Shown one piece after another: positions 4,101 through 56,295 of a DNA stretch of 64,000 nucleotides. The first letter of the stretch is position 1; the number at the start of each line of letters is the position of its first letter. The notes beneath the pieces were generated by a model, which was not told where the DNA came from, made no database searches, and saw only the letters and a list, made by a program, of their open reading frames with translations. The translations under genes and the position numbers were made by a program. This DNA is from Candidatus Omnitrophota bacterium (GTDB lineage: Bacteria > Omnitrophota > Gorgyraeia > Gorgyraeales > Gorgyraeaceae), in assembly GCA_018824145.1 (NCBI GenBank), contig JAHJHC010000088.1, forward strand, positions 2,696-66,695. The letters run 5' to 3'.

Positions 4101-5336
4101 TGTGATGATATCGGAAGGAATACCTGGATGTACGACAGGATGAAGGCATTCACTATGCCAGAGAGATTATTACTCGAAGGTATGGCTAAAACCTTAAAAG
4201 TTATAAGAAACATTAAACCTGTAAAAAATGATTATAGAGAGTATCATGAAGATCCGATGTTTGCAGGCATTTTTCACGGGAGGAAGGCCTTTACAGGTCC
4301 GGAGCACGTTGTGATTGACCCTACGAATAAATGTAATTTAAAGTGCATTTCTTGTTGGCTTTACTCACCTTTACTTACTAGTGATAAACCGGATCCCGAT
4401 TTCCTGAAAAAAGAATTACCTAAGGATGTGCTTGTTAAGTTAATAGATGATTTGTCATCTTTGGGGACAAAACGCATTCGTTTTACTGGTGGCGGAGAAC
4501 CTTTTATGCACAAGGATTTAATGGAGATTATAGAGTATGCCCGCAGAAAAAAGCTTCTTGTTGCCTTGTCTACTAATTTTGGTATGGCCTCCAAAAAAGA
4601 TATAAAAAAGCTCATAGATTTAGGTTTAGAAGAATTGTGCATAAGTATATGGGGGTCTAATTCTCAGATTTACGACAAAATCCATCCCGGTGTTTCTTCT
4701 AGTTATTTTGAAAGATTGAAGGAAAATCTACTTTTTCTTAAGGAGACAAAGAAGAACGGGCCTCGTGTTACCTTTGCTAATGTAATTATGAATTTAAATT
4801 TCGAAGATTTTCAAGATATGTATAAATTCGGTTTACAATACGGAGCTGATGCGGTTTATTTTACTCTGGTAGATATATTTCAGAAACAAACAGACAAACT
4901 TTTATTGAATGAAGAAGAAAGAAAGAAGTTGTTAAATATGGCTATGGAGGTTAAAGAGAGAAATAAAGATGACAGTCTACATCTGGAGTTTTTTGATGGT
5001 TTTTTAAGAAGATTATCTAAGTCTTGTGAGGATTTCGAAAAGGGAGAGTATGATAAGTTCGATGTTGATAAGATTCCGTGTTATGTCGGCTGGTTTTTTG
5101 CTAGGGTTTTGGCCAATGGTAATATAGTTCCTTGTTGCCGCGGAGTGAAAAAGGTATTAGGTAATATAAATAAGAAATCCTTTAAAGATATATGGTTTTC
5201 AGAAAAATACAATGAATTTAGAGCAAGGGCAAAGTATTTATCAAAAAATGATATTTATTTTCAGAAAATAGGTTGCATAAAAGAATGTGATAATCTGATG
5301 CATAATGAAGAGATGCATAGTAAGATAGCATCTTAA
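1098..5336 (+). CDS. Giant 1412-aa protein with three tandem radical SAM domains, each followed by a SPASM/twitch-like Cys-rich region
   Basis: Three repeats of about 410 aa each. Each starts with a CxxxCxxCW motif (DRCNNTCIACW, NNCNNTCIACW, NKCNLKCISCW) plus a GSGEPF/GGGEPF motif. Each ends with CYIGW...NG-V-PCC...LGNI...IW, a SPASM-like signature. Repeats 1 and 2 are also similar at the nucleotide level (for example 1161-1245 versus 3078-3160). Confidence 0.8.
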   Translation: MNIWQEIFRGIENEKQAFCGPHTVQIDLTDRCNNTCIACWVHSPLLDKKEVFPEREKEISFPFVEQLICQLRVLGTKEIILSGSGEPFMYPQIKEAISLIKKSGIYLNIITNGTLLNKDMVRFIVDKGVDLITLSMWAGTPQAYVNTHPGRSLRDFEEIKEKLKNLNCYKQQSGLLLPHVKVYNVLCNRNHDDVEAMVDFAKDIDAGFVEFQIVDVIKGKTDNLLLNNELQKKIIAQFDKISKRHDFVKWHDLNVKLKGKDTMQDLRDFGKLWKNYRSDFVLLKKAQNIICSKEKFCEKIEQKNILLPPGHFQHLGFRFSFNEEVCKICAHFSRCFPSQECIVDANLLNVLGIGTLMRRFSSPKSELGLYERHVDYFPCYIGWYYARILTNGDVIPCCKAHLHPLGNIYRKSFSDIWGSNAYRKFRVKAKRAPKTDPYFSLINCIKSCDNWGMNVEISNRTKTFLHDRTITSKMKSERQIIVLAKDYIDSNFNPSYHDFGKGLVIDGGHKVGFAKYRFSIDEDGEYEFWSRYASNAIRPVDIYMDGILLKKGGLNKITDGWTSKFLKWYEEFTIELKKGEHLFGIRSSNSIPHIEKFILFKKDNPPAFIKKDKHKFFYKKLSQYITGKKRLESSLVKAVKNRYIESLGIYDGEYGYKGPFHVQIDLTNNCNNTCIACWCNSPLLKEKRLSPREKEQYLPMGLVKELLDETSAKGATEVYYSGSGEPFMHPDIMQILEYSKKKNLICHVNTNFSLLTKEKLRCLIDIGLDFLTVSTWAATPETYVKTHPNRTKEDFYKIRENLLYLNTHKKDKPCIKLYNVIFNMNYFEVEKMVEFAKETMSESLEFTLVDTMPNATDILVLNKEQLMELKKALDRIKCVLDEDNRVRDANILIFQFDQFLRRIYVVDDVKEAKYDRNIIDRMPCYIGWLFARIIPNGEVHSCLKAHRIPTGSLYKDRFLEIWNSQKQYHFRKKTLVCKKDDPFFRSIGNDSNIEEAGCYKSCDDIGRNTWMYDRMKAFTMPERLLLEGMAKTLKVIRNIKPVKNDYREYHEDPMFAGIFHGRKAFTGPEHVVIDPTNKCNLKCISCWLYSPLLTSDKPDPDFLKKELPKDVLVKLIDDLSSLGTKRIRFTGGGEPFMHKDLMEIIEYARRKKLLVALSTNFGMASKKDIKKLIDLGLEELCISIWGSNSQIYDKIHPGVSSSYFERLKENLLFLKETKKNGPRVTFANVIMNLNFEDFQDMYKFGLQYGADAVYFTLVDIFQKQTDKLLLNEEERKKLLNMAMEVKERNKDDSLHLEFFDGFLRRLSKSCEDFEKGEYDKFDVDKIPCYVGWFFARVLANGNIVPCCRGVKKVLGNINKKSFKDIWFSEKYNEFRARAKYLSKNDIYFQKIGCIKECDNLMHNEEMHSKIAS

Positions 5337-5362: not shown

Positions 5363-6777
5363 ATGGAGAAATTCGACATCATTCTTACTGTTTGTCCACC
5401 ATGGGGAAGTCCTTCTGTACCTATAGGCCTTGCGTATTTAGCCAGTTATCTTAAAGACAAAAAATTAAATCCAAAAGTTTTAGATTTGAACTTAGAAGTG
5501 TTTGATAATTTGAGCAACGAGGGATTCGAAAAATACTGGCTTTCTAGATATTGTAAGCATTGGAGTGACCAGAAATTGTTTTGCGAGTTTATTAAGAATA
5601 TACCTGAACAAATAGAATATTGCGTAGGTAGATTGCTTTCTTTTGGCACGGAAATCATAGGTTTTTCAATTAATCAAAGTAATCGAAATTTTTCAGTTGT
5701 AATTGCCCAAGAGTTAAAAAAAGAAATGAAAAGTTAAAGATAATATTTGGCGGTATGGGTGTCTTCATAAGAGGAGAGCGAATGTTAATTGCGCCTGACA
5801 TTGTGGATGCATATGTTTTAGGTGAAGGTGAAGAATCCCTTTTTGAACTTATATCCAGAATCAAAGAAAATAAAAGTTGTTTGGATGTTCCAGGAGTTTT
5901 AGTAGAGTCTTTCGAAGCCAATTATACCCCTAGAAAGAAAATCAAAAATTTAGATGAGATACCGTTTCCTACATATGAAGACTTTGCTCTAGATAGATAT
6001 CCAGAATCAAATACAATATCTATAATTTCTAGCAGAGGATGTATGAATAAATGTGTTTTTTGTGGAAATTGGCCATTTTGGGGGCAATTCAGGCATAGGA
6101 GTGGAAAGAATATTTTTGATGAGATAAAACATCACTATGAAAGACATGAAATTACTACATTTAAATTTAACGATTTAGCCTGCAATTGGAATTTAGAAGA
6201 ACTTAAACGGCTCTGTAATCTTGTTATAAATAATAAAATGCGTATTACTTGGCAGAGCTATGCAGTATTGGATAATCTATTGACGGATGATATTTTAAAA
6301 GATATGAAATTAACTGGTTGTTGTGCCCTTTCGTTCGGTGTGGAATCAGGATCCAATAGGATCCTTAAATCTATGGATAAAAACCATAGTGCTGAAGTCG
6401 CAGAAAAGGTACTTCGCAGAACTTATAATGCTGGGATTCAGACAAATATTAATATTATGGTAGGCTTTCCAGGTGAAGGTGAACAAGAATTACAGGAAAC
6501 TATAGATTTTTTGATTAGAAATGTTAAGTACATAAGTGTAATCGAAGCTATATCAGTCTGTTATATTAAACCTTTGTCAATATTAGCAAATAATCCACTT
6601 GCCTATAACATAGTTCTTCCTCCCGGACCAGATCGATGGTACAATTGGTCTGCATCTGATGGAACCAGCGACTATGGCAATAGAAAAAACTTTGCAGATA
6701 GAATTTTAAGATTAGTGAAAGACTTGAATTTAAACTTCGATGTAGATAACCTATATGGATATTTTTATATTTTTTAG
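5363..6777 (+). pseudogene. Cobalamin-binding radical SAM gene split by an apparent frameshift in an A7 homopolymer (about 5714-5720); pseudogene or sequencing error
   Basis: ORF 5363-5737 encodes the B12-binding N-terminal region (ILTVCPPWGSPSVPIGLAYLASYL). ORF 5755-6777, in another frame, continues with the paralog-conserved KIIFGG...VLGEGEE region and the rSAM cluster motif (SSRGCMNKCVFC). The frame switch coincides with the run ttaaaaaaag. Confidence 0.6.
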
Positions 6778-6876
6778 ATAATTCATTATAATTGTAACTA
6801 TTAGTGGCCCTGTAACTTTATGGAAAATAATTAGATGGAAAAACATTGATGTAGTTTATATTGTAATGAGGGGAAA

Positions 6877-8349
6877 ATGAGTATGAATAAAGATATAGTT
6901 TTAGTATCTCCTCCGCCAGGCTGGCAAAGGACGTTGCCTATTGGATTAGGATTTTTAGCATCATATTTAAGTAAGAGCGGATTTTCCGCTGTTATTTATG
7001 ATATGGCTTTAGATATGATCGGAAAAGTAAAAGATGAGGATCGCGATTGTCTGTGGGGATTAAAAGCAAAAAATCTTTGGTTAGATCCAGAGGTGTTTAA
7101 ATTATTCGTCACTAAATATGAAAAAGAGATTCAGTCTTGTGTAGACCATATACTTTCTTTTAGTTCATCTATTATAGGTTTTTCGGTTATTCATTCAAAG
7201 CAACTTGTTACTTTAGAGATTATTCGCAGGATTAAAAAGATAGACCCATCTATTACTATAATTGTCGGGGGACCGGCTTGTTTTTATGATGAGGACCGCT
7301 ATATTCTCGAAGCACCTAAGATCATAGACATATTTGTATTAGGTGAAGGAGAGAAGACTTTGTACGAATGCCTTGTTAATATCAAACAAAATAAGCCGCT
7401 TGACGAAATAAAAGGTGTTAGGACTTTGGAGTCTAATTACAAGGGATATATATCCAGAGACCCTATTGAAGATTTAGATACTATTCCTTTTCCTGAATAC
7501 CCTGGTTTGAAGATTGAAGACTATCAACCGGATCCAGTGCCGCTATTCTGTAGCCGCGGATGTTTTGGCAAATGTTCTTTTTGTGAAATTAAAAATATAT
7601 GGAAGAGTTATAGAACAAGGAGTGCCGAGAGTATTTTTGAGGAGATTAAATTCTATGTAGAAAAGAAAGAGATATTTCATTTTTCACTATTCGATTCCAT
7701 AGTGAACGGTGATCCGAAAAATTTAGAAAGGTTATGTGATTTTGTTATTAAATCTATGTATAAGATCCGTTGGGAAGGCAACGTGCTTGCTTTACCTTCG
7801 ATGAATAGGGATATTTATTCAAAAATGCAAAAGGCTGGCTGTGAACTTGTATATTTTGGTGTCGAAACAGGATCTGAATACGTTTGCAAAAAGATGAAGA
7901 AGCCGTTTACGATTTTTGAAGCGGAAAGGAATATTCGCTTAGCGCATGAGGCAGGCATAGAGGTTTCCGTAAATTTCATTACTGGTTTTCCAGGAGAGGA
8001 TGAAGAACATTTTCAGCAAACGATAGATTTCACTAAAAGAAATAGCCAATATATAGATAGAGTCGATTTTATTACCGAATGTCAAGTAGCTAGGGGAACG
8101 CACCTGTTTTTACACCCTGCTGATTACGGAATAGTTATACCAGAAGATTGGCAAGGCTATAAATGGTATACTAATGACGAGAAAAATACCATCTCTGTAA
8201 GACAAGCAAGAACTTTGATTCTTGGGAAGTATTTAGATTCACTGGGGGTTAAAATTAACGTAAATTTTAATCTTGATGATGGAAGCCAAAAAGTCAAGGG
8301 TAAGATAGTCGTTAATTTAAAGAAGGATATTAATAAGGGGACCTTATGA
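6877..8349 (+). CDS. Cobalamin-binding (class B) radical SAM protein
   Basis: N-terminal B12-binding-like region (VLVSPPPGWQRTLPIGLGFLASYL), then IIVGGP and VLGEGE motifs, then the rSAM CxxxCxxC motif (CSRGCFGKCSFC). Confidence 0.8.
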   Translation: MSMNKDIVLVSPPPGWQRTLPIGLGFLASYLSKSGFSAVIYDMALDMIGKVKDEDRDCLWGLKAKNLWLDPEVFKLFVTKYEKEIQSCVDHILSFSSSIIGFSVIHSKQLVTLEIIRRIKKIDPSITIIVGGPACFYDEDRYILEAPKIIDIFVLGEGEKTLYECLVNIKQNKPLDEIKGVRTLESNYKGYISRDPIEDLDTIPFPEYPGLKIEDYQPDPVPLFCSRGCFGKCSFCEIKNIWKSYRTRSAESIFEEIKFYVEKKEIFHFSLFDSIVNGDPKNLERLCDFVIKSMYKIRWEGNVLALPSMNRDIYSKMQKAGCELVYFGVETGSEYVCKKMKKPFTIFEAERNIRLAHEAGIEVSVNFITGFPGEDEEHFQQTIDFTKRNSQYIDRVDFITECQVARGTHLFLHPADYGIVIPEDWQGYKWYTNDEKNTISVRQARTLILGKYLDSLGVKINVNFNLDDGSQKVKGKIVVNLKKDINKGTL

Positions 8350-40962: not shown

Positions 40963-41856
40963 ATGATATCAGTAATTATTGTAAATTACAATAAGAAAGA
41001 TTTATTGAAGAGATGTCTGGATTCTGTTAGGGGACAGGGTTTTAAGGACATAGAGATTATTGTGGTGGATAATGCGTCTCCGGACGATAGCGTTGAAATG
41101 GTTAGGATGTATTATCCTGAAGCTAAATTGATATGGAATACAAGAAATTTGCTTTTTTGTAAGGCATATAATCAGGGGATAGATGCCTCGAAAGGGAATT
41201 TTATAGTATGTTTAAATAATGATGTTGTCTTGGATAAAGATTATTTAAAAGAGGCCTTGTTTGCAATAGGTCTGGATAATAGAATTGGCATGGTCAGCGG
41301 CAAGATTTTAAGGGTGGACAAAAAGACAATAGATTCTGCGGGTCTTTTCCTGGGTAAGAATAGGAAACCTATCGAAAGAGGTTATGGAAAACAGGATGAA
41401 GCGCAATATGAAAAACCAGGTTATGTCTTTGGAGTGAGCGGTGCCTGCGCTTTTTTTAGAAGGAGCATACTCATGGATATAAAAGATGAGAATGGATATT
41501 TTGACGAGAGATTTGGTATGTATTATGAGGATCTGGATTTATGTTGGAGGGCACAGAAAAAAGGATGGAAGGCTTATTATTATCCGAAGGCTGTAGCATA
41601 TCATGTTAGATCTGCAACAGCAGTTGGCCGGATAGGGATAAAGAAAATAAACTTGCCTTACCTGACAGATAGTTTAAAGAGGATGTATATTAAGAATAGA
41701 TACTTATGCATGAAGAAAAATGATTCTCTGAGAGGAATTTTGTTGAACTTGCCGTTTATTATATGCTATGAGATGAAAATATGGTTATACATGTTTTTTA
41801 ATTTAGCTCTCAAGAGCTCTCAAGAGATTTTTCTTGACCGTGATAAAAAAACATAG
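40963..41856 (+). CDS. GT2 glycosyltransferase (rhamnosyltransferase-like), paralog of 24893-25840
   Basis: MISVIIVNYNKKDLLKRCLDSV ... VDNASPDDS ... YFDERFGMYYEDLDLCWRAQKKGW. Confidence 0.8.
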   Translation: MISVIIVNYNKKDLLKRCLDSVRGQGFKDIEIIVVDNASPDDSVEMVRMYYPEAKLIWNTRNLLFCKAYNQGIDASKGNFIVCLNNDVVLDKDYLKEALFAIGLDNRIGMVSGKILRVDKKTIDSAGLFLGKNRKPIERGYGKQDEAQYEKPGYVFGVSGACAFFRRSILMDIKDENGYFDERFGMYYEDLDLCWRAQKKGWKAYYYPKAVAYHVRSATAVGRIGIKKINLPYLTDSLKRMYIKNRYLCMKKNDSLRGILLNLPFIICYEMKIWLYMFFNLALKSSQEIFLDRDKKT

Positions 41857-41882
41857 TATAATCCTCTTCGATAGGGGGAGAA

Positions 41883-42152
41883 ATGGCAGTAGTAAAAGAG
41901 AAGAAAAAAGAGCTCATAAAGGGGTTTGCTGAACACGAAAAAGATACTGGTTCTTGCAGTGTGCAGGTAGCTTTACTAACCGAACGGATTAATAATCTTA
42001 CGGAACATTTTAAGTCACATAAAAAAGATTTTAATTCCAGGGTAGGTCTTTTACGTTTGGTCAGTCAAAGAAAGAGGCTCCTGGATTATCTAAAAAAAGA
42101 GAATACTGAAAGATATCGCGAGCTTATAGGAAAATTAAAACTGAAGAAATAG
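41883..42152 (+). CDS. rpsO: 30S ribosomal protein S15
   Basis: 89-aa protein with TGS...VQVA.LTERI..L..H...HKKD..SRRGLL motifs typical of S15. Located immediately upstream of pnp. Confidence 0.95.
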
Positions 42153-42157
42153 ATGGA

Positions 42158-42230
42158 AAGCGGATTTATCGGCCCTGGGATAATATGTATTTTATAAATA
42201 AGAGACAGGGGACATGATTCCGCTTTTTTT
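42158..42230 (+). terminator. Putative rpsO intrinsic terminator: a long imperfect hairpin (GCGGA...CCCTG...CAGGG...TCCGC) followed by T7
   Basis: Nested complementary arms ending in tccgcttttttt at 42219-42230. Confidence 0.35.
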
Positions 42231-42243
42231 ATAACACAGCAAT

Positions 42244-42296
42244 GTAGCTGCAGCATCTTATGCTGCATAGAAGGCATGGCAAGGCCATGCAACTAC
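42244..42296 (+). repeat. 53-nt structured motif, copy A: closing arms GTAGCTGC/GCAACTAC around two triloop hairpins (GCAGCAT-CTT-ATGCTGC; GCATGGC-AAG-GCCATGC), in the pnp leader
   Basis: Read directly from sequence. It has the same length and architecture as copy B at 44404-44456, with compensatory stem changes. Confidence 0.5.
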
Positions 42297-42314
42297 AGAG
42301 TGATAGGAGAAATT

Positions 42315-44402
42315 ATGGATCATATTAAAGTCGAGACAAAGATTGGCAGAGAAAATTTGATTATCGAAGTCGGAAAAATGGCAAAGCAGGCAAATGGGTC
42401 AGTCTGCGTGCAATATGGCGGCACAGTGGTTTTGGTTGCAGCCGTGTGTTCTAAGGAATTGCGCGAAGGTATAGATTTTTTTCCTCTTACAGTAGAATAT
42501 CAGGAAAAGACTTATGCAGCAGGTAAGATCCCCGGCGGATACTTTAAACGGGAAGGCAGGCCTTCGGAGAAGGAGATATTGACTGCCAGACTGATAGACC
42601 GGCCTATAAGACCGCTATTTCCAAAGGGATTTATGAACGAGGTCCAGATCTTCAGCATAGTATTTTCAAGTGACGGAGAGAATGATTCTGATATCCCTGC
42701 CATAATAGGTGCTTCAGCTGCATTGACTATTTCAGATATACCTTTTTCAGGGCCTATCGGTGCAGTGAAGGTCGGTTTAGTAGATGATAAGTTTATCGCA
42801 AATCCGACTTTTAAAGAGCTTGAAAATAGTGCCTTGGAGCTGGTTGTGGTTGGTTTTAAGGATAAGATCATTATGCTGGAGGCAGGCGCTAACGAGGTTT
42901 CCGAAGATAAAATGCTTGAGGCTATAGAGTTTGCACAAAAGCATATAAGCGAGACTATTGCTTTACAGGAAGATCTGCAGAAGAAGGTCGGCAAGGAGAA
43001 ATTTGAACCAGAGTTGAAAGTGACGCAGGAAGGATTGTATGGAAAGGTCAGGGACTTGTCTGTCCCTGAATTGCAGAAAATAAATTCGCTTCCAATAGAA
43101 GAGCAAAGAAAAGAGGCCTTGGATATTTTAAGTAAATCTATAGTAGAGAAATTAAAGGCTGAAGACGGAGCCTTGAACGATACCGATATAAAGAATGCCT
43201 TGGGCAAGGTTGAAAAAGAGGAGATCAGAAAGTTTATTCTTGGGAAAAGGACAAGGGTTGACGGAAGAAAGGATACGGATATAAGGACTATAAGTTGTGA
43301 AGTCGGGATATTACCGAGGACTCATGGGTCCGGTCTTTTTACCAGGGGCCAGACACAGAGTTTATCCACCACTACACTTGGAACTAGTCAGGATGAACAG
43401 CGGTTGGATGACCTTGAAGGAGAGAGGTTTAAGAGCTTTATGTTGCATTATAATTTTCCGCCTTTCAGCGTAGGTGAGGTTAGGCCCGCCAGAGGGCCTG
43501 GCAGAAGGGAAATCGGCCACGGCGCTTTAGCAGAAAGGGCACTTAAGGCAGTAATGCCTTCCAATGAGGAATTTCCTTATACAGTGAGAGTGGTTTCGGA
43601 TATCTTGGAATCAAATGGCTCTAGCAGTATGGCAACTGTATGTGCGGCAACCCTTTCCCTTATGGATGCAGGTGTTCCCATAAAGAAACCTGTTGTAGGG
43701 ATAGCAATGGGTTTGATAAAAGAGGATAAGGATACGATGATCTTGACTGATATTGCGGGTATTGAGGACCATTTTGGCGATATGGATTTTAAAATTACGA
43801 GCACGGATTCCGGAATTACTGCTCTTCAGATGGATCTGAAGATCGACGGTATAGATATTGCATTAATAAAAAAGATAGTAAAGCAGGCGAGCCCTGCCAG
43901 GGATTTTATCCTAAATAAAATCTCAGAAGTGATAGGTAAACCCAGGGAAGAGGTTTCGGAATACGCGCCTAAGATAATTTCAATCACCATTAATAAGGAA
44001 AAGATCAGAGATCTGATAGGTCCCGGAGGAAAAGTAATAAAGAGGATAATTAAGGATACGGGCGCAACTGTCGAGGTGGAAGATGACGGTAAGGTCTCTG
44101 TATCATCAGATAGCCAGGAGTCTATCACGAAGGCCATAGAAATCATAAAGGGCATAACAGGCGAGGCAGAGATAGGTACGGTTTACGAAGGCACGGTTAC
44201 CCGTGTGATGAATTTTGGTGCGTTTTGTGAAATATTCCCCGGTAAAGAAGGCCTGGTTCATGTGTCTGAAATAGCAGATAAGTTCGTGAAGAATGTAGAG
44301 GATGTTATCAAGGTGGGCGATAAGGTCAAAGTGAAGCTTATTAAAATAGATGAGATGGGCAGGTATAATCTCAGCATAAAACAGGCCCAGGTCCAAGAAT
44401 AA
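42315..44402 (+). CDS. pnp: Polyribonucleotide nucleotidyltransferase (PNPase)
   Basis: Two RNase PH domains, a KH domain and a C-terminal S1 domain (GTVTRVMNFGAFCEI...GLVHVSEI). Start set at the ATG at 42315 (MDHIKVETKIG), after the AGGAGA RBS. The ORF track's 42276 start would overlap the structured leader. Confidence 0.95.
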   Translation: MDHIKVETKIGRENLIIEVGKMAKQANGSVCVQYGGTVVLVAAVCSKELREGIDFFPLTVEYQEKTYAAGKIPGGYFKREGRPSEKEILTARLIDRPIRPLFPKGFMNEVQIFSIVFSSDGENDSDIPAIIGASAALTISDIPFSGPIGAVKVGLVDDKFIANPTFKELENSALELVVVGFKDKIIMLEAGANEVSEDKMLEAIEFAQKHISETIALQEDLQKKVGKEKFEPELKVTQEGLYGKVRDLSVPELQKINSLPIEEQRKEALDILSKSIVEKLKAEDGALNDTDIKNALGKVEKEEIRKFILGKRTRVDGRKDTDIRTISCEVGILPRTHGSGLFTRGQTQSLSTTTLGTSQDEQRLDDLEGERFKSFMLHYNFPPFSVGEVRPARGPGRREIGHGALAERALKAVMPSNEEFPYTVRVVSDILESNGSSSMATVCAATLSLMDAGVPIKKPVVGIAMGLIKEDKDTMILTDIAGIEDHFGDMDFKITSTDSGITALQMDLKIDGIDIALIKKIVKQASPARDFILNKISEVIGKPREEVSEYAPKIISITINKEKIRDLIGPGGKVIKRIIKDTGATVEVEDDGKVSVSSDSQESITKAIEIIKGITGEAEIGTVYEGTVTRVMNFGAFCEIFPGKEGLVHVSEIADKFVKNVEDVIKVGDKVKVKLIKIDEMGRYNLSIKQAQVQE

Positions 44403-44403
44403 C

Positions 44404-44456
44404 GTAGTTGCAGCACCTTGTGCTGCCAATGTAGCACCATGAGATGGTGCAGCTAC
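44404..44456 (+). repeat. 53-nt structured motif, copy B: arms GTAGTTGC/GCAGCTAC around hairpins GCAGCAC-CTT-GTGCTGC and GCACCAT-GAG-ATGGTGC, in the uppP leader
   Basis: Read directly from sequence. It shows co-variation relative to copy A. Confidence 0.5.
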
Positions 44457-44462
44457 ATTTAT

Positions 44463-45209
44463 ATGACATTGTTTGAAGCGATAATTTCAGGCATTGTGCA
44501 AGGCCTGACAGAGTTTCTTCCTATCTCGAGCTCCGGCCATCTTGTTATTCTCCACAGAATAATTGGACTCCAGGAGCCTCAAATAGCCTTTGATATTTTT
44601 TTGCATGTAGGTACTCTCATAGCAATATTTATAGTATTCTGGAGAGATATCCTGGATGTTTTTGGTTCTAAAAAGAAGACAGGCATTTTAATTTTATTAG
44701 GGACTGCTCCAACAGCGATTTTTATAGCGCTCTTCGGAGAAAAAGTTGCGGCTTCATTTACAAATGTTAGATTTGTTGGAGCCATGCTGATTGTAACCGG
44801 ACTCTGGTTGATCTTGGGGAATTTCTTCAGGTATGGTACGACGCAATTCTCAGGATTTAAGGCTATTTTTATCGGATTAGCGCAGGGCATCGCTGCCTTC
44901 CCGGGAATATCAAGAAGCGGTGCGACTATTTCCACTGCACTATTTCTGGGAATCGATCCTAAAAGCGCTGCCAGGTTTTCTTTTTTATTAGCTATCCCGG
45001 CGATTATAGGGGCCTTTTTATTGAAGATAAAGGACTTCTCTCTTAACGGAAGCAATATGAATAACTACATCCTTGGCCTAGTCGTATCTTGTATCGTCGG
45101 TATTTTGTCATTAAAATTGTTATTAAGGGTTCTTTATAGGAATAAATTTCATTTGTTTGGGATTTATTGTATAGTGGCCGGGCTGCTGGTGCTCGGATTT
45201 TTAAAATGA
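44463..45209 (+). CDS. uppP: Undecaprenyl-diphosphatase (BacA/UppP)
   Basis: IISGIVQGLTEFLPISSSGHLVI matches the BacA signature. The protein has eight TM segments. Start moved to the ATG at 44463. Confidence 0.9.
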   Translation: MTLFEAIISGIVQGLTEFLPISSSGHLVILHRIIGLQEPQIAFDIFLHVGTLIAIFIVFWRDILDVFGSKKKTGILILLGTAPTAIFIALFGEKVAASFTNVRFVGAMLIVTGLWLILGNFFRYGTTQFSGFKAIFIGLAQGIAAFPGISRSGATISTALFLGIDPKSAARFSFLLAIPAIIGAFLLKIKDFSLNGSNMNNYILGLVVSCIVGILSLKLLLRVLYRNKFHLFGIYCIVAGLLVLGFLK

Positions 45210-47482
45210 AAAAAAACAAAAAAAACCTTATAGTTTCTTTTGGATTATTCGGTCTGGCATTGTTGTTGCTGGCGGCGTTGATTTCTTATTCTCCTTACGA
45301 TATCCGTTTTGAGACATCTAAGCCTAATCTCTCTACAAGAAATTATATCGGCATAGTCGGTGCCTACACCGCGTGGATTATATTCAAGATCGTAGGATAT
45401 GCGGGGTTTCTTATACCGCTCTTGTGCGTGGTCTGGGGCATGGGTATGCTCACTGAAAAATTGACACAGCGGCCGGTATTTAGATTCCTGGGGATAATCT
45501 TATTGTTTTCTTCAGCTGCTACGCTTTTTAGTTTGACCGGTATAGATGACCCTGTGTTTATGGTCGAAAGGGGAGGCATCCTCGGTTTTTATATAGCGAA
45601 TATCCTTCTTGAATACTTTGGGATCATGGGAGGGTATATAATAACTACTACTTTGAGTATTTTAGCGCTTTTAGCCTGCACTGAATTTCTGATCTTAACC
45701 TTTGCCTCATTTTTGGTTTTACGCACATGGAATCTGTATAAAGGCTTGAAAATAAAACGGGCCCAGAAAAAAATATTTAAACCTAAAGAGCGTATCGAAC
45801 CAAGGCCGAGATTAAAGCCAGCAGTGAAGATGCCTTCCTACGCCAAGACTTCGGATGACAGGTTGGATGGCAGGCAGAAGACACCTCTTGAACCCCGAGC
45901 CTGTCAAGAGGGCATTTTAGATAGGGAAGAAGATGACCAAAGGGGGTCCCGAGCGGAGTCGAGGGAAAGGCCAAGAATAATTTTACCTAAAGTTAAACCA
46001 GCGCCAAAGCCGGTCCCTAAAAAACCAGTAAAGATCGAACCGCGCATAGTAGGTGACTATAAACTGCCTACCCTGGACTTGTTGGACTTAGCCCCGCCTG
46101 AATCAGAAAGGACGTTGGATGATGGTTTAGAGGACAGTGCCGGGATCCTGGAAGATACGTTACGTGATTTTGGCATAGAGTCAAAGGTGGTGGATATAAG
46201 TAAAGGCCCTGTGATTACCAGATACGAATTGCAACTTGCCCCAGGGGTGAAGGTAAATAGGATCACGGCTTTGAGTGATGATATAGCCCTTACTATGAAG
46301 GCCCCGACTGTTAGGATCGTTGCCCCTATACCGGGAAAATCAGCAGTGGGTATAGAGGTCCCTAATCAGAAAACAGCACTGGTATATATAAGGGAAATAC
46401 TTGAATCCAAGGAATATCAGAAAATGGCATCTAGTTCAAAACTTGCCATAGCACTTGGAAAAGATATCTCGGGTAAGAGTGTTGTAGCGGATATCGGTGA
46501 TATGCCGCATCTTTTTATTGCAGGTACTACTGGTTCAGGGAAAACAGTATGTGTTAATTCTTTGATAATGAGCATGATTTATAACGCTACCCCGGATGAG
46601 TTGAAATTTTTAATGATTGATCCCAAAATGGTGGAATTGGCTATCTATAATGGCCTACCCCATCTTTTATGTCCAGTGGTTACTGATGCGAAAAAGGCTA
46701 AGGCAGCCCTTGGTTGGGTGGTAAGTGAGATGGAAGCAAGATATAAATTGCTGGCAAATCTTACTGTCAGGAACATCGATGCGTTTAATGTAAAGTCAGA
46801 AGATAAACTCCCTTATATAGTGGTAATTATAGATGAGCTTGCAGACCTTATGATGACAGTCCAGGAAGATGTGGAAAATGCGATTACCAGGCTTGCCCAG
46901 CTTTCAAGGGCAGTGGGCATACATATGATACTTGCAACGCAAAGGCCGTCGGTTGATGTGGTAACAGGCGTAATAAAGGCAAACTTCCCGGCAAGGGTCT
47001 CTTTTAAGGTGGCGTCAAAAGTGGATTCAAGGACTGTTTTGGATATGAACGGTGCTGATAAATTACTGGGAAAAGGGGATATGTTGTTTTTAAAGCCTGG
47101 TAACGAGAAGCCGATAAGGGCCCAGGGTACACTTCTTACTGATGCGGAGATAGAAAAGGTCGTTACTATGGTAAAGGAACAGAGGGAGCCTGTTTATAGT
47201 GACGAGATACTCGAGGAACAGGCAAAGGGTGTATCCGGTACATCAGGATTTTCGAAGGATGAATTTTTTGATGAGGCAGTAAAGATGGTGCTCCAAACAG
47301 GCCAGGCATCTGTATCAATGCTCCAGCGCAGGCTTAGGCTGGGTTATACGAGGGCTGCAAGATTGATAGACACTATGGAAGAACAGGGGATAATAGGCCC
47401 TTTTAGAGGAAGCAAGCCGAGAGAGATTTTGGTAAAAGAATATAAAAGTGAAGTAGAACCCTCTGAAGAAGATACATTATAG
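45206..47482 (+). CDS. ftsK: DNA translocase FtsK/SpoIIIE
   Basis: N-terminal TM helices, a Pro/Lys-rich linker, Walker A GTTGSGKT, ATQRPSVDV and a C-terminal gamma winged-helix domain. Start moved to MKKNKKN at 45206. Confidence 0.9.
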   Translation: MKKNKKNLIVSFGLFGLALLLLAALISYSPYDIRFETSKPNLSTRNYIGIVGAYTAWIIFKIVGYAGFLIPLLCVVWGMGMLTEKLTQRPVFRFLGIILLFSSAATLFSLTGIDDPVFMVERGGILGFYIANILLEYFGIMGGYIITTTLSILALLACTEFLILTFASFLVLRTWNLYKGLKIKRAQKKIFKPKERIEPRPRLKPAVKMPSYAKTSDDRLDGRQKTPLEPRACQEGILDREEDDQRGSRAESRERPRIILPKVKPAPKPVPKKPVKIEPRIVGDYKLPTLDLLDLAPPESERTLDDGLEDSAGILEDTLRDFGIESKVVDISKGPVITRYELQLAPGVKVNRITALSDDIALTMKAPTVRIVAPIPGKSAVGIEVPNQKTALVYIREILESKEYQKMASSSKLAIALGKDISGKSVVADIGDMPHLFIAGTTGSGKTVCVNSLIMSMIYNATPDELKFLMIDPKMVELAIYNGLPHLLCPVVTDAKKAKAALGWVVSEMEARYKLLANLTVRNIDAFNVKSEDKLPYIVVIIDELADLMMTVQEDVENAITRLAQLSRAVGIHMILATQRPSVDVVTGVIKANFPARVSFKVASKVDSRTVLDMNGADKLLGKGDMLFLKPGNEKPIRAQGTLLTDAEIEKVVTMVKEQREPVYSDEILEEQAKGVSGTSGFSKDEFFDEAVKMVLQTGQASVSMLQRRLRLGYTRAARLIDTMEEQGIIGPFRGSKPREILVKEYKSEVEPSEEDTL

Positions 47483-47524
47483 TTAGTTTAGCCCGTTGCA
47501 TAGAATTAACGGAGTCAACGGATT

Positions 47525-48427
47525 ATGTCCGATTCACTAGGAAAAACACTCAAAAGGATTAGAGAAGCTAAAAAGCTTTCCATAGAAGAGGCTTCAGAAA
47601 AAACCCGCATATCTAAAAAAATCCTGCAGACCATAGAAGAAGATAGATTAAACGAGCTCCCTTCAGAGTTTTATGCCAGGGGTTTTATAAAGACATACTC
47701 CAGGTTCCTTAATGCGTCCGAAGAAAAGAAAATAAAAGAATATTTATCAGGTATCCAGCAAAAAGAAAAGCCTATCCTTATATTGGAAGGCGAGAAAGTC
47801 CCGGGGGACTGGTTTTTGAAGCATAAAAAGTATATCGGCATAGCAGTTATTGCGATTTTCAGTATGTGGACGATTTTATTCAGTGTTGTGCAGGTAACGA
47901 AATTTGTAAAAAATACTTCTGCAAAGTTCAAGATACAGATGGCTAAGAGACGGGAGGCAAAAGAGGAGCAAAAAAAGAAGATAGAGCAAAAAAAGAAGGC
48001 AGATGAAGAGAAAAAGAAGAAAGAAGCTGCAGAGAAAAAGAAGGCAGCTGCAAAGATTGCCCGCCCTGAGCAAAGTCGAAAGGATTTACCTGCACCTTCG
48101 TCTGCAGCTACTGCTACGGTCGCATCTAGTAAAGTAAGTTCAGAAACGACAACGCCCGTAAAAAAAGAAAATATCGAGCTTGAGATCATAGCGCATTATA
48201 ACTCCTGGGTCGAGATCATTAGCGACGGAGAGCTTGTATTTAGAGGCATATTGAAAAAAGGGACTGAGGATATTTGGAAGGCAAAAAAAGAGATGAAGTT
48301 GGAAGTCGGCAACGCAGGCGGCGTAGAGCTGACGCTCAATGAGAAAAAACTCGGTACCCCCGGCAAAAAGGGAGAGAAGAAGGAAGTCATTATTACGGAA
48401 GACGGGTATAAAATAAGTGCGCTGTAG
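47525..48427 (+). CDS. rodZ: RodZ-like cytoskeletal protein (HTH-XRE domain, TM segment, K/E-rich linker, C-terminal DUF4115-like domain)
   Basis: N-terminal HTH (LGKTLKRIREAKKLSIEEASEKTRISKKILQTIEE), one TM helix, a KE-rich low-complexity linker and a C-terminal beta-rich domain. Confidence 0.55.
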   Translation: MSDSLGKTLKRIREAKKLSIEEASEKTRISKKILQTIEEDRLNELPSEFYARGFIKTYSRFLNASEEKKIKEYLSGIQQKEKPILILEGEKVPGDWFLKHKKYIGIAVIAIFSMWTILFSVVQVTKFVKNTSAKFKIQMAKRREAKEEQKKKIEQKKKADEEKKKKEAAEKKKAAAKIARPEQSRKDLPAPSSAATATVASSKVSSETTTPVKKENIELEIIAHYNSWVEIISDGELVFRGILKKGTEDIWKAKKEMKLEVGNAGGVELTLNEKKLGTPGKKGEKKEVIITEDGYKISAL

Positions 48428-48461
48428 CGCCAGACGTACAGTGAGTGTCACTAGTACAAAA

Positions 48462-48484
48462 GGGGACGAATGTCCCCATTTTTT
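48462..48484 (+). terminator. Intrinsic terminator hairpin GGGGAC-GAAT-GTCCCC followed by ATTTTTT
   Basis: Perfect 6-bp GC stem plus a T-tract, immediately before the rimO ATG at 48485. Confidence 0.55.
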
Positions 48485-49744
48485 ATGAAGAAGACATTTA
48501 GTATAATAAGCCTGGGTTGTCCGCGGAATCTTGTGGATTCAGAGTGCATTATCTCTGAATTTAAAAAGAAAAGATATGCATATAAGGAAAAAATTGACAA
48601 TATAGACATACTGATCATCAATACATGCGCCTTTATTGAAGACGCCAAAAAAGAATCCATAGACACTATTCTAAAAGCCATAGATGCGAAAGAAAATGAC
48701 ACAATAAAAAGAATCATAGTGACAGGGTGTCTTTCCCAGAGGTATAAGAAGGAATTACAAAGTGAATTTAAAGGCGTAGATGAGTTTAGAGGTGTCGTGG
48801 ATTTCAAGGCCACCTTTAAAAGGGATCTTACGGATTCTTTGACACCGAGCCATTCCGCGTATATTAAGATATCAGAGGGATGCAGGAATAGATGCAGCTA
48901 TTGTATAATACCTTACATTAAAGGGCCTTATAGGAGCAGGCCTATGGACTCAATAGTAAAAGAATCCGAAGACTTATTTAAGAAAGGTGTCAGAGAGATT
49001 GTCTTAGTGGGACAGGACACGTCTCTTTATGGCGTAGATTTATACAAGAAAAAAATCCTGGGTGTGTTATTGAAAAAATTAGACAAGATCTCAGGAGAGA
49101 ATTGGGTCAGAGTCCTTTACTCTCATCCTGCGAATTTAGATAGAAGCATAATAGAGATAATCAGGGACAGTAAGAATATCTGCAGATATATTGATTTACC
49201 CATTGAACACATAAGCGACAGGATATTGCGACAGATGGGACGGAAGACTAAAAAGAAAGATATAATTTCATTGATCGGATATATCCGTAGTAGCGTGCCT
49301 GATATAGCATTGCGAACATCTATAATCGTCGGCTTTCCCGGCGAGACAGAAAGGGATTTCCAGGAGCTTTTGTCATTTATTAAGGCGATTAAATTTGAAA
49401 GATTGGGACTCTTCAGGTATTCTAGAGAGGAAGGTACCCCTGCAGCTAAGTTTAAAAACCAGTTGTCAGAGAAAGAAAAAGACCGGCGTTTTAATGAAGC
49501 GATGTCGCTCCAGCAGGCAATATCCAGCGAGATAAACGAGAATTTCAAGGATAAAGTATTAAAGGTCTTGATCGAAAATAGGGAAGAGGATTATTATATA
49601 GCTAGGACCCAATACGACGCGCCGGAGGTGGACGGGGTGGTGTATGTAAAAGGTGAAAATTTAAGGATAGGCGATTTTTACAATGTCCGTATAACCGATA
49701 CCTACGAGTATGATTTAGTAGGAGAATATGAACCTTGCAAATAA
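48485..49744 (+). CDS. rimO: MiaB-family methylthiotransferase, probably ribosomal protein S12 methylthiotransferase RimO
   Basis: N-terminal MTTase domain (ISLGCPRNLVDSE), rSAM motif EGCRNRCSYC and a C-terminal TRAM domain. Start moved to MKKTFSII, downstream of the terminator. Confidence 0.65.
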   Translation: MKKTFSIISLGCPRNLVDSECIISEFKKKRYAYKEKIDNIDILIINTCAFIEDAKKESIDTILKAIDAKENDTIKRIIVTGCLSQRYKKELQSEFKGVDEFRGVVDFKATFKRDLTDSLTPSHSAYIKISEGCRNRCSYCIIPYIKGPYRSRPMDSIVKESEDLFKKGVREIVLVGQDTSLYGVDLYKKKILGVLLKKLDKISGENWVRVLYSHPANLDRSIIEIIRDSKNICRYIDLPIEHISDRILRQMGRKTKKKDIISLIGYIRSSVPDIALRTSIIVGFPGETERDFQELLSFIKAIKFERLGLFRYSREEGTPAAKFKNQLSEKEKDRRFNEAMSLQQAISSEINENFKDKVLKVLIENREEDYYIARTQYDAPEVDGVVYVKGENLRIGDFYNVRITDTYEYDLVGEYEPCK

Positions 49745-50294
49745 ACTAACGATTTCCAGGATGATCCTGGCAGTCATATTTATACTTTCTTTATTTATCA
49801 GAGGTGTGGGTGCAAAATTTTTTGCCCTAGCCGTATTCTTGACTGCTTGCGTTACGGATTATTACGACGGGTTAATAGCAAGGAAGAAGGAGATTATTAC
49901 AGAATTCGGCAAACTCATGGACCCGATCGCTGATAAGATCTTGATTTTAGGCGCCTTTCTGGCATTTGTTGAGATGAAAATAATACCTTCATGGATGGTG
50001 ATGGTGATTATTGCCAGAGAACTTGTTATTACAGGGATAAGGATAATTGCTCTATCAAGAAAAAAAGTCCTCTCAGCCTCAATGGCAGGGAAGCATAAAA
50101 CAGTTTCGCAGATGGTGGCAGTGTTGTCTGTACTGATCTTTTTGATAATCAGGGATTCGGGGTTTACTTTCCAATATATAGAGTATTATAGTTCAGGCGT
50201 CTATATGCTTATGTTAATTACTGTTTTGATGACATTGACATCCGGCGTTTCCTTTATGCTAAAAAATAAATATATTTTCATGGGTGAAGAATGA
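49728..50294 (+). CDS. pgsA: CDP-diacylglycerol--glycerol-3-phosphate 3-phosphatidyltransferase
   Basis: CDP-alcohol phosphatidyltransferase motif DYYDGLIARKK...GKLMDPIADKIL. Confidence 0.85.
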   Translation: MNLANKLTISRMILAVIFILSLFIRGVGAKFFALAVFLTACVTDYYDGLIARKKEIITEFGKLMDPIADKILILGAFLAFVEMKIIPSWMVMVIIARELVITGIRIIALSRKKVLSASMAGKHKTVSQMVAVLSVLIFLIIRDSGFTFQYIEYYSSGVYMLMLITVLMTLTSGVSFMLKNKYIFMGEE

Positions 50295-50743
50295 AGATAA
50301 TCGATAATTTATGTAAAATAATCGCAAGTGTTTTCTATATAGGATATTTTCCCGTGGCCCCGGGCAGCATGGGGAGCTTTGCGGCGCTGTTTTTATACTA
50401 TTTTATAAAAGAGAGTCCGCTGCTTATGGGGGTTGCTATTATAGTAGCTCTTATACTCGGCCTTATAACTGCAGGCAGGGCAGATAGCCTTTTTGGAGGA
50501 AAAGATTCAGGTGAGATTATAATAGATGAATTCATGGGCATGCTGGTGAGCTTGATCTTTTTACCTGCGACCATGGGTTATATAGTATCAGCATTCTTAC
50601 TCTTCAGATTTTTCGATATAATAAAGCCTAAACCCATATCTGGTCTTGAAGAATTAGGCGGAGGCCTGGGGATAATGGCAGACGACCTGATGGCTGGGAT
50701 ATATACGAATTTGATATTACAGGTTGTGTATAGATTGTTGTAG
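50291..50743 (+). CDS. pgpA: Phosphatidylglycerophosphatase A
   Basis: GYFPVAPGSMGSFAAL matches the PgpA consensus. Small membrane protein co-located with pgsA. Confidence 0.7.
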   Translation: MKIIDNLCKIIASVFYIGYFPVAPGSMGSFAALFLYYFIKESPLLMGVAIIVALILGLITAGRADSLFGGKDSGEIIIDEFMGMLVSLIFLPATMGYIVSAFLLFRFFDIIKPKPISGLEELGGGLGIMADDLMAGIYTNLILQVVYRLL

Positions 50744-50752
50744 TTGCAGCTA
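50739..50752. repeat. Palindrome GTAGTTGCAGCTAC, equal to the two closing arms of the 53-nt motif without the internal hairpins. It contains the stop codons of convergent pgpA (TAG) and ligT (CTA)
   Basis: Read directly from sequence. Confidence 0.4.
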
Positions 50753-51325
50753 CATTGGTTTGGTTAGATACGATTCTGCCAAAGGTGTATAGATAGCGCC
50801 TTTTGGCGTGAGCGTGCTTTGGAAGAGGATGAGCTTATCAATCTTGATCTCATCCTGAAACTGAAGCCCTGTTTCAGAGATGATTTTTGTAAGTCCTGAT
50901 ATATTTTTTAAAGATTTGACCCTTCCGAGCGTGAGATGGGTCTTGAACTCACGCTTTTCTTTTGCGAAGTTCAATCTTTCCAAAGCTGTCTCTACTGAAT
51001 TAGCTAAAAGTATTACATTTTCTTTACCTTTATCAATCCCTATCCAGATAACCCTTGGTCGCTGCAGGTTAGGGAATGCTCCTATCTTTGAAAGTTTGAT
51101 ATTAAACTGAGTAAAATTTTCTGATATATTCTTAAGCGCTTCGGAGATATTTGGCACTAGACTCCCATCTATATTCCCAAGGAATTTCAGAGTCAGATGC
51201 ATCTGGTTTTCAGTTACCCATTTGATCTGGGTGTTGGATTTTTTGAATTGGGTTATGAGATCGGAGAGTTTTTGTTTATTGGGCTCGTCTATTTCTATAG
51301 CTACAAAAGCACGGATTGTGTCCAT
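50750..51325 (-). CDS. thpR: RNA 2',3'-cyclic phosphodiesterase (2'-5' RNA ligase family, ThpR/LigT)
   Basis: Two H-x-T-x motifs (HLTLKFLG; HLTLGRV) in a protein of about 190 aa. Confidence 0.8.
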   Translation of the reverse strand: MDTIRAFVAIEIDEPNKQKLSDLITQFKKSNTQIKWVTENQMHLTLKFLGNIDGSLVPNISEALKNISENFTQFNIKLSKIGAFPNLQRPRVIWIGIDKGKENVILLANSVETALERLNFAKEKREFKTHLTLGRVKSLKNISGLTKIISETGLQFQDEIKIDKLILFQSTLTPKGAIYTPLAESYLTKPM

Positions 51326-55846: not shown

Positions 55847-56260
55847 ATGAGAATTGGGAGGGTTATAGTTGGAGGTGTTGTTGTCACGGTATTTGATGCG
55901 ATTGTGGGAGCGGTTACTTGTGGCGGGGTTTTTAACTGGGTTTATAAGCTTGAGCCTGTGAATGTTTGGAAACCAATGGAAGGTGCTCCGGGGATCGGGT
56001 ATTACATAGGTGCGTTGTTGCTTAATATTTTATTTGTTGCAGTTTACGCTATGTTACAAAAGGGTATACCTGGAAAAAATAGACTGCGTAAGGGGCTGTT
56101 ATTTGGACTGTGTGTGTGGGCAGTTGGGATTCTACCTGGTATGTTTGCCACATATATGTTTATGACTGTTGCTCCTGCTGTTGTATTTTATTGGGCAATT
56201 TTGGCTTTAATCCAAGAACCACTAAAGGGATTAATAGGTGCTGCTGTATATGGGGAATAG
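55847..56260 (+). CDS. Small hypothetical membrane protein (3-4 TM helices)
   Basis: ORF with hydrophobic segments. A 9-bp perfect hairpin lies immediately downstream. Confidence 0.4.
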   Translation: MRIGRVIVGGVVVTVFDAIVGAVTCGGVFNWVYKLEPVNVWKPMEGAPGIGYYIGALLLNILFVAVYAMLQKGIPGKNRLRKGLLFGLCVWAVGILPGMFATYMFMTVAPAVVFYWAILALIQEPLKGLIGAAVYGE

Positions 56261-56267
56261 TAGTAGT

Positions 56268-56289
56268 AGGGGAGACTTAAGTCTCCCCT
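56268..56289 (+). terminator. Perfect 9-bp stem-loop AGGGGAGAC-TTAA-GTCTCCCCT downstream of 55847-56260
   Basis: Read from sequence. No U-tract follows. Confidence 0.35.
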
Positions 56290-56295
56290 ACAGTT

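Follow-up and report, generated by a model that had tools for sequence, protein, structure and literature searches.

Background

Repetitive extragenic palindromes (REPs) are palindromes of 20-50 nt preceded by the tetranucleotide GTAG, and a GTAG head followed by a hairpin is their defining signature (PMC8266576). A Bacterial Interspersed Mosaic Element (BIME) consists of one REP, a linker and an inverted REP, and is often found in tandem; a gene for a REP-associated tyrosine transposase (RAYT) flanked by REPs is called a REPtron, and short perfect palindromes make up group 3 of the REPs (PMC8266576). Di Nocera et al. 2013 described 24 GTAG families from eight phyla (PMC3733652). They reported head-to-head (HH) dimers, in which the GTAG termini lie outside, heterodimers with different stems, intragenic REPs, subfamilies arising via complementary stem changes and, in some families, an unpaired dinucleotide between GTAG and the stem (PMC3733652). 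Here we analyze a 64-kb stretch of DNA from an Omnitrophota bacterium (the whole stretch, 36% G+C, is called the window below), in which two elements of 53 nt, copies A and B, lie on either side of the gene pnp. An earlier reading, made from the sequence only, had drawn attention to these elements. In view of the descriptions of Di Nocera et al., every feature that it had pointed out is a described property of GTAG-tagged REP dimers.

The two 53-nt elements are very probably head-to-head heterodimers of GTAG-tagged REP units, similar to BIME or REPINs and belonging to a RAYT-associated family; they would have arrived by RAYT-mediated insertion and would be passive in mRNA. Their identity as REP heterodimers is well supported. 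The REP kind of element is itself already known; what is new here is a member of a REP family in phyla where REPs have been little described.

Results and discussion

Structure of copies A and B

Both copies were found at the positions proposed by the sequence-only reading (42244-42296 for A and 44404-44456 for B), and each is 53 nt long. Read from its outer ends inward, each of them consists of two inverted copies of a 23-nt unit, GTAG-YT-GCA-NNNN-CTY-NNNN-TGC. A covariance model of the single unit, called R1, was run on the 64 kb with filters off, and its scores are given with the features:

42244..42266, + strand: left REP unit of copy A, subtype Q, GTAG + CT + GCAGCAT-CTT-ATGCTGC, R1 34.7 bits
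42267..42273: linker of copy A, ATAGAAG (7 nt)
42274..42296, - strand: right, inverted REP unit of copy A, GTAGTTGCATGGCCTTGCCATGC, subtype S, R1 31.5 bits
44404..44426, + strand: left REP unit of copy B, GTAGTTGCAGCACCTTGTGCTGC, subtype Q', R1 34.5 bits
44427..44433: linker of copy B, CAATGTA (7 nt)
44434..44456, - strand: right, inverted REP unit of copy B, GTAGCTGCACCATCTCATGGTGC, subtype P, stem GCACCAT/ATGGTGC, R1 31.3 bits

All four units have a GTAG head, the dinucleotide YT, a perfect 7-bp stem and a 3-nt loop, in keeping with GTAG-tagged REPs. In both copies the units are inverted, with their heads outward and a 7-nt linker between them, as in a BIME or an HH heterodimer. The partner units of a doublet differ in the inner 4 bp of the stem, and subtype S has been found so far in this species only. 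No further copy of the unit was detected by R1 in the 64 kb, the four halves scoring 31-35 bits and the next best match 13.8. Likewise, the pattern GTAGYTGC-N(20-50)-GCARCTAC matches the window at A and B only, with 0 matches in 100 dinucleotide shuffles. Perfect hairpins with a 7-bp stem and a 3-nt loop are present 12 times in the window; the G+C-rich ones among them are the four hairpins inside A and B, plus one at 53631 (7 bp, with 3 G/C pairs).

The sequence-only reading had described each copy as an 8-bp closing stem around two 7-bp triloop hairpins. The arms of this stem exist and correspond to the two outward GTAG heads, but its length was overstated, since the inner GC is shared with the hairpin stems. 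The closing arms of copy A contain a C.A mismatch on the + strand, and RNAfold predicts for this copy a closing stem of 4 bp when folded alone and 5 bp in its mRNA context. The hairpin units are also present in both copies, but the minimum-free-energy fold of copy B is one long imperfect hairpin. As RNA, A and B fold with -22 to -27 kcal/mol and z-scores of -2.6 and -4.6. As single-stranded DNA, single units take the form of an unpaired GTAG-NN head followed by a hairpin of 7 bp with a 3-nt loop (-6.9 kcal/mol for the left and -7.4 kcal/mol for the right unit of copy A).

Searching the whole window against Rfam at gathering thresholds gave no match. At E<=1 over 42100-44600, only chance-level matches appeared and none corresponds to the doublets themselves; one of them, to rliD (14 bits, 42286-42461), includes the final 11 nt of copy A. 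The outline of the elements also recalls the three-way junction of a hammerhead or another small ribozyme. This candidate, based on shape only, was rejected: there is no conserved core, the linkers are not conserved and Rfam gives no match.

Distribution of the family and diversity of its stems

One genome per GTDB species (185,579 genomes) was scanned with the pattern GTAGYTGCA-N11-TGC-N(12-32)-TGCARCTAC. The scan returned 47 loci, with about 20 expected by chance according to our estimate, and about 26 of the 47 have the full two-hairpin architecture, i.e. hairpins closed by GCA...TGC, left loops CTT or CTTG, complementary right loops and GTAG heads pointing outward. The hosts are Omnitrophica, Elusimicrobia, Nitrospiraceae, Planctomycetota, Dehalococcoidia/Chloroflexi (64-69% G+C), Saccharibacteria, Roizmanbacteria, other Patescibacteria, Marinifilum, Flectobacillus and one Bacillota metagenome-assembled genome (MAG). 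A stricter pattern, restricted to the 7-bp/3-nt subtype of the window, was used on JGI metagenomes and gave 16 more loci, including the same species (L061, 99.6% identical); some JGI metagenome contigs are dense in the window's own hairpin subtypes. Tandem arrays are present in L015, L032, L041, L048 and L059, and arrays also in L024 and L051: five tandem doublets follow each other in L032 with a period of about 94 nt, and L059 contains 24 units in 14 kb. Linkers measure 7-20 nt across 41 doublets and are not conserved. Doublets are found in unrelated gene contexts across phyla, including inside open reading frames (ORFs). Among the options left by the sequence-only reading, that of a REP-like repeat or small mobile hairpin is thus the one that is supported, the same GTAG-headed doublets being present in many phyla, in arrays and on both sides of RAYT genes.

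The stem sequences differ between A and B while remaining complementary, which had been taken as a sign of selection for structure rather than recent copying. In substance, this claim stands. Of the seven stem pairs, five show changes on both sides in a set of 28 distinct units; no variation is seen in the GTAG head or in the two outermost G-C/C-G pairs. The covariation score of the stem is 0.70, versus 0.15 for shuffles and at most 0.16 for slid controls, a figure which is inflated because only units with six paired positions had been chosen. However, the differences between A and B are not compensatory evolution at these loci. Three of the four subtypes of the window (Q, Q' and P) are present in other contigs: the stem of P is also found in Omnitrophica (L004/L035) and Nitrospiraceae (L027), and a Q'-like unit in L070. 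Since these hairpins occur elsewhere, the stem differences between A and B correspond to different pre-existing REP subtypes (Q, S, Q' and P).

Some doublets of the candidate phyla radiation (CPR) lie in frame in long ORFs. In Saccharibacteria (L016), the doublet 4110-4170 is included in a Mur-ligase-like ORF (3401-4921) which carries a second palindrome, of the GTAGGGGCGG type; the doublet 8-63 of L033 is another case in frame. In Roizmanbacteria (L037), the doublet 5954-6009 lies in frame in a 652-aa ORF (5509-7467, - strand). In addition, identical or near-identical 23-nt units, GTAGYTGCAACCCTTGTGGTTGC and GTAGYTGCAGGGCTTGTCCCTGC, are shared by MAGs of CPR phyla, Planctomycetota, Bacteroidota and an unclassified 'bacterium' (L016, L037, L033, L017, L048 and L015/L024/L032/L041/L043). 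Such near-identity across phyla suggests either cross-phylum transfer of REPtrons or mis-binned contigs.

Association with RAYT genes

In six independent contigs (L048, L051/L052, L053, L059, L076 and L077), units of the family flank RAYT genes, which is the arrangement of a REPtron. No other kind of transposase-like gene was found beside family members, and these genes score 55-81 bits with the RAYT model versus 20-37 bits with the IS200 model. In Marinifilum (L048), a 150-aa ORF lying between oppositely oriented doublets matches Y1_Tnp (E 1.5e-11); its sole PDB relative is TnpA(REP) of E. coli (4ER8), and it scores 75 bits with the NCBIfam model 'REP-associated tyrosine transposase' versus 32 bits with the IS200 transposase model. 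In L051/L052 and L053 the homologous genes likewise lie between GTAG-headed hairpins, and the hairpin sequences vary with the enzyme.

In half of the six contigs (L059, L076 and L077), the flanking hairpins are identical or near-identical to P and Q of the window. The RAYT of L059 (Y1_Tnp E 1.6e-11; 81 bits with the NCBIfam 'REP-associated tyrosine transposase' model, for a curated cut-off of 80) has doublets of GTAGCYGCACCATCTTATGGTGC and GTAGCTGCAGCGCCTTGCGCTGC, of P and R type, on either side; GTAGCYGCACCATCTTATGGTGC, the commonest unit around this gene, has the stem of the right unit of copy B. Its orthologues in L076 (73% identical) and L077 (66%) are flanked by GTAGCCGCAGCATCTTATGCTGC, whose hairpin is identical to that of the left unit of copy A. 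These two contigs come from samples other than that of the window species (SRR22388187 for L076 and ERZ1292634 for L077). At E<=1e-10, the databases contain 1,287 relatives of the RAYT clade, and some of them are annotated 'REP element-mobilizing transposase RayT' in Elusimicrobia, WOR-3, Zixibacteria and Chloroflexi.

A small mobile element of another kind, merely resembling REPs, would also be short, have inverted termini and be lineage-specific, as A and B are; it could be a miniature inverted-repeat transposable element moved by a DDE transposase, or palindromic ends of the IS200/IS605 type. However, no target-site duplication is visible at A or B, the neighbouring transposase-like genes fit the RAYT model far better than the IS200 model, and a GTAG head with a hairpin is the signature of REPs (PMC8266576). 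We find this explanation hardly credible.

Three of the RAYT genes contain REP units of their own family, inserted in frame (L059 13396-13490; L076 333-400; L077 ~403-458). The inserts share one site, between the HUH motif and the catalytic-tyrosine motif, in RAYTs that are 66-73% identical, and they encode peptides such as NVAAPSYGAN...AAQGAAAT. It is unusual for a transposase to host stably its own substrate repeat in its coding sequence.

Genomic context of the doublets

Gene order in the window is rpsO-pnp-uppP-ftsK-rodZ-miaB-pgsA-pgpA, then convergent ligT-cinA, then recA; in near-identical contigs the pnp product is annotated as polynucleotide phosphorylase (PNPase). Copy A comes after the terminator-like hairpin of rpsO, and 18 nt separate its end from the pnp ATG (42315). 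Copy B lies in the 60-nt pnp-uppP spacer, where it starts 1 nt after the pnp TAA and ends 6 nt before the uppP ATG (44463), a position which leaves no space for a Shine-Dalgarno sequence before uppP.

Directly after rpsO (42156-42230), a long hairpin closed by AAAGCGGA...TCCGCTTT is followed by a U-run. Its position and outline are kept in all relatives examined, and it is presumably the rpsO terminator or attenuator. A near-consensus promoter-like site, TTGACC-17-TATAAT, is present upstream of rpsO (41834-41862).

Being stable stem-loops rich in G+C and located between genes in an A+T-rich genome, the doublets could themselves be intrinsic transcription terminators or attenuators. This reading was rejected because no U-tract follows either copy (AGAGTGATAGG comes after A and ATTTATATGAC after B). 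Besides, a terminator scan calls neither of them, a canonical terminator-like hairpin with its U-run already stands just upstream of A, and B ends only 6 nt before a start codon. A terminator function is therefore highly improbable.

We then compared the locus with its relatives. Four strain-level contigs (0.1-1% divergent from the window) carry A, B or both, unchanged. In five syntenic Omnitrophota (L054, L055, L056, L074 and L075; PNPase 79-80% identical, same gene order, about 100 kb in total), no unit was found at E<=1. Both the rpsO/pnp and the pnp/uppP spacers lack the element in these five relatives and in L035, and only same-species contigs retain it. Because they are absent from the five syntenic relatives, A and B are regarded as lineage-specific insertions, and on this comparison of sequences the copies are not ancient at this locus. 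One Omnitrophica lineage farther removed (L035/L068, PNPase 76%) has a REP cluster just upstream of rpsO and none at the window's positions. A pnp-specific association across phyla was considered and rejected: among the loci that are true members of the family, copies near rpsO/pnp were found only in two Omnitrophota lineages.

Hairpins in the pnp spacers of related lineages

In E. coli, the pnp 5' untranslated region carries, downstream of the rpsO terminator, a stable stem-loop which is an RNase III site involved in PNPase autoregulation. The doublets could accordingly be dedicated cis-regulatory RNAs of rpsO-pnp-uppP, A being an RNase III-cut, PNPase-autoregulatory leader hairpin and B a 3' protective or processing stem-loop. 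The position of copy A, after the terminator-like hairpin of rpsO and just before the pnp start, is where a pnp-leader hairpin is expected, and both elements fold stably as RNA. Moreover, relatives devoid of the element possess other hairpins at these places. Stable hairpins unrelated in sequence are found just upstream of the pnp ribosome-binding site in L054 (9918-9988), L056 (9945-9979) and L074 (5622-5642), with z-scores of -6.6 and -7.4 for the leader segments of L054 and L056 and -16 kcal/mol for the hairpin of L074; these might be RNase III or autoregulation sites. Strong unrelated hairpins are also present in the pnp/uppP spacer of L054, L074 and L035. Overall, a strong pnp/uppP hairpin exists in four of seven lineages and an extra leader hairpin in four of seven, all of them unrelated in sequence. 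A table of junction hairpins was made with RNAfold, with gene boundaries obtained by tblastn and therefore approximate; it is a better control than a simple palindrome finder, which overlooked hairpins containing mismatches or a long loop. That the leader hairpins of L054 and L056 are repeated mobile elements was considered and rejected, as neither has a second copy among the loci compared; the hairpin of L074 has a near-copy (3 mismatches) at position 2947 of L021.

Several observations stand against such a dedicated role. Besides the absence of the element from both spacers in the five syntenic relatives, one of these (L055) has no hairpin at either place. The same element is found across phyla in unrelated contexts, inside ORFs and around RAYT genes, and Rfam has no match for the doublets. 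In L074, palindromes are also located at ftsK/rodZ, miaB/pgsA and pgpA/ligT and inside cinA, some of them belonging to repeated families shared between lineages; hairpins are thus not specific to pnp. Finally, two 7-bp hairpins would be poor substrates for RNase III compared with a duplex of about 20 bp or more. The sequence-only reading had proposed an RNase III or terminator-type processing site coordinating the expression of rpsO-pnp-uppP. This proposal is not retained, given the five relatives without the element, its unrelated contexts including ORFs and the missing U-tract. A dedicated regulatory role is unproven and less likely, and we consider dedicated cis-regulatory RNAs improbable; the doublets may nevertheless have a secondary, co-opted role as RNA.

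An intermediate possibility is that, in this Omnitrophota clade, the flanks of pnp are selected "hairpin slots", one before the ribosome-binding site and one after the stop codon, which are filled by any available palindrome, the REP doublets being co-opted here for PNPase autoregulation or as a block to exonucleases. We consider this unlikely, though not to be neglected. The simpler reading is that of permissive spacers in a tightly packed cluster, colonised by various palindromic repeats, because the same relatives carry palindromes at other junctions too.

In related Omnitrophota, junctions between genes of this syntenic block are also occupied by recurring palindromes from other repeat families, with no relation to the GTAGYTGCA units. 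These families include the types CCCCCACCGCGGGGG, AAACCCGCATTG and GTAGGTGACCCTTAAGGGTCACCTAC, and were found at L074 7757-7793 and 12796-12841; at L035 3167-3217 (reverse-complement) and L074 13881-13926; and at L075 12076-12101 and L074 16926-16951.

Proposed mode of insertion

Interpreting A and B as RAYT-associated REP heterodimers leads to the following scheme. The genes flanked by units of the family encode RAYT/TnpA(REP) proteins, which belong to the HUH enzymes with a single tyrosine and are relatives of the IS200 transposases. If the systems studied in E. coli, Stenotrophomonas and Marinomonas are taken as a guide, a RAYT would bind the folded single-stranded DNA hairpin together with its GTAG head and then cut and rejoin nearby, which is believed to be how the units spread. 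Since constraint falls only on the fold, the basal pairs and the head, the inner pairs of the stem can covary freely, and distinct subtypes arise. The copies of the window would have come by RAYT-mediated insertion into the permissive spacers rpsO/pnp, pnp/uppP and pgpA/ligT. Copies A and B would then be part of the rpsO-pnp-uppP transcript and form stable stem-loops there, which may act as passive barriers to 3'-exonucleases and as a block to translational coupling between pnp and uppP.

In E. coli, REP stem-loops reportedly impede 3'-exonucleases, including PNPase, and they are said to be able to depress translation of the gene preceding them when they lie close to its stop codon (Newbury et al. 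1987; Khemici & Carpousis 2004; Liang & Deutscher 2015). In two of the syntenic relatives (L055 and L056), uppP overlaps pnp or starts at most 12 nt from its stop. As uppP overlaps or closely follows pnp in these lineages, the insertion of copy B probably altered the coupling between the two genes.

Some observations weigh against this interpretation. No RAYT gene was detected in the window by tblastn with the RAYT of L048 and 21 RAYT homologues. With two doublets (four units) and one remnant in 64 kb, the density is low for a REP family and the distribution oddly local, both doublets adjoining one gene, pnp. The doublets are 100% identical among the four strain-level contigs, so that there is no sign of current mobility. 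The REP cluster located upstream of rpsO in L035/L068 could hint at selection rather than neutral insertion, and the support from covariation is reduced by the pre-selection of units mentioned above.

An arms-only palindrome at the pgpA/ligT junction

The remnant is a 14-nt palindrome:

50740..50753: arms-only palindrome GTAGTTGCAGCTAC, consisting of two GTAG heads with no hairpins between them

The sequence-only reading had noticed these fused arms across two convergent stop codons. The palindrome is indeed there, but its true position is 50740-50753 and not 50739-50752. Both stop codons are a TAG within it, that of pgpA at 50741-50743 and that of ligT, on the opposite strand, at 50750-50752. 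From a direct reading of the sequence, GTAGTTGCAGCTAC equals copy B minus the segment between its two TGCAGC direct repeats. The 14-mer was found in none of the 73 loci compared; in L054, L055 and L056 the ends of pgpA and ligT overlap and the 14-mer is absent. The 14-mer is probably a deletion derivative of a doublet whose hairpins were lost through the TGCAGC repeats, and its fixation would be due to the two stop codons that it now provides. A recurrent excision footprint or an empty target site was also envisaged, and rejected in view of the 73 loci; the same absence makes a rare local deletion the better reading.

Repeatedly, a neighbouring gene has the TAG of a GTAG head as its stop codon: this is the case for pgpA and ligT in the window, for the RAYT gene of L059 (13618-13620) and for pnp in L075 (12077-12079).

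A second class of palindromes

The window contains one more element with GTAG and CTAC ends:

56266..56291: perfect palindrome GTAG...CTAC GTAGGGGAGACTTAAGTCTCCCCTAC, of a different REP-like class

It starts 6 nt after the stop of the ORF 55847-56260 and folds as single-stranded DNA with -11.6 kcal/mol (z -5.3). A related palindrome, GTAGGGGAGGTTTAAACCTCCCCTAC, is present in L068 (953-978), and palindromes of the GTAGGGGCGG type were found in L004, L016 and L017. We think that GTAGGGGAGACTTAAGTCTCCCCTAC is probably another REP class in the same genome, and it may belong to the same system as the doublets.

Implications

For annotation purposes, the 53-mers should be labelled as REP/BIME-type repeats and not as a new riboswitch-like or processing motif. 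More generally, covarying REP hairpins mimic structured RNAs, and caution is therefore needed with motif-discovery pipelines applied to MAGs. The GTAG-YN-GCR family of REPs and its RAYT clade extend well beyond the Proteobacteria, where REPs are best studied, and the family is a possible resource on the co-evolution of domesticated HUH transposases and their hairpins.

Comparison with known systems

The pnp leader hairpin of E. coli offers a functional comparison only. Copy A resembles it as a stem-loop located after the rpsO terminator, but shows no conservation of sequence or position among close relatives, and the same element is also found far from pnp.

Rickettsia palindromic elements (RPEs) are said to be inserted in frame in protein-coding genes (Ogata et al. 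2000). The in-frame doublets recall this behaviour, both those in ORFs of L016 and L037 and those of the L059, L076 and L077 RAYT genes, whereas copies A and B of the window are intergenic. With about 100-150 nt, RPEs are also longer, and they are not known to have a GTAG head or a RAYT.

The REP/BIME of E. coli and their enzyme TnpA(REP) (REPtron Ec, RAYT group 2; 4ER8) share with the present family the GTAG head and the RAYT gene flanked by REPs. As in E. coli BIME, a REP is joined across a linker to an inverted REP of a different subtype (Y/Z in E. coli), and tandem arrays exist (cf. L032). Unlike the units of the window, however, the longer REPs of E. coli have an imperfect stem with a bulge which is required by the enzyme, and GTAG directly abuts this stem (PMC8266576). 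In the E. coli-type family, tail-to-tail dimers predominate over HH dimers according to Di Nocera et al. (PMC3733652).

The last comparison is with the group-3 REPs/REPINs and SMAGs of Pseudomonas, Stenotrophomonas and Marinomonas (GTAG-1/-2-like, RAYT group 3). The present family differs from them by its sequence, GTAG-YN-GCR...YGC with CTT/CTTG loops, by its hosts, which are Omnitrophota and mostly uncultivated phyla instead of Gammaproteobacteria, and by its low density in the window. The two halves of a REPIN are reportedly near-identical and fold into one long hairpin (Bertels & Rainey 2011), whereas the dimers described here always pair two different stems. The likeness is nonetheless extensive: short perfect hairpins after GTAG, an unpaired dinucleotide between head and stem, mostly HH dimers with short linkers, subfamilies with complementary stems, and a RAYT gene flanked by units of the family.

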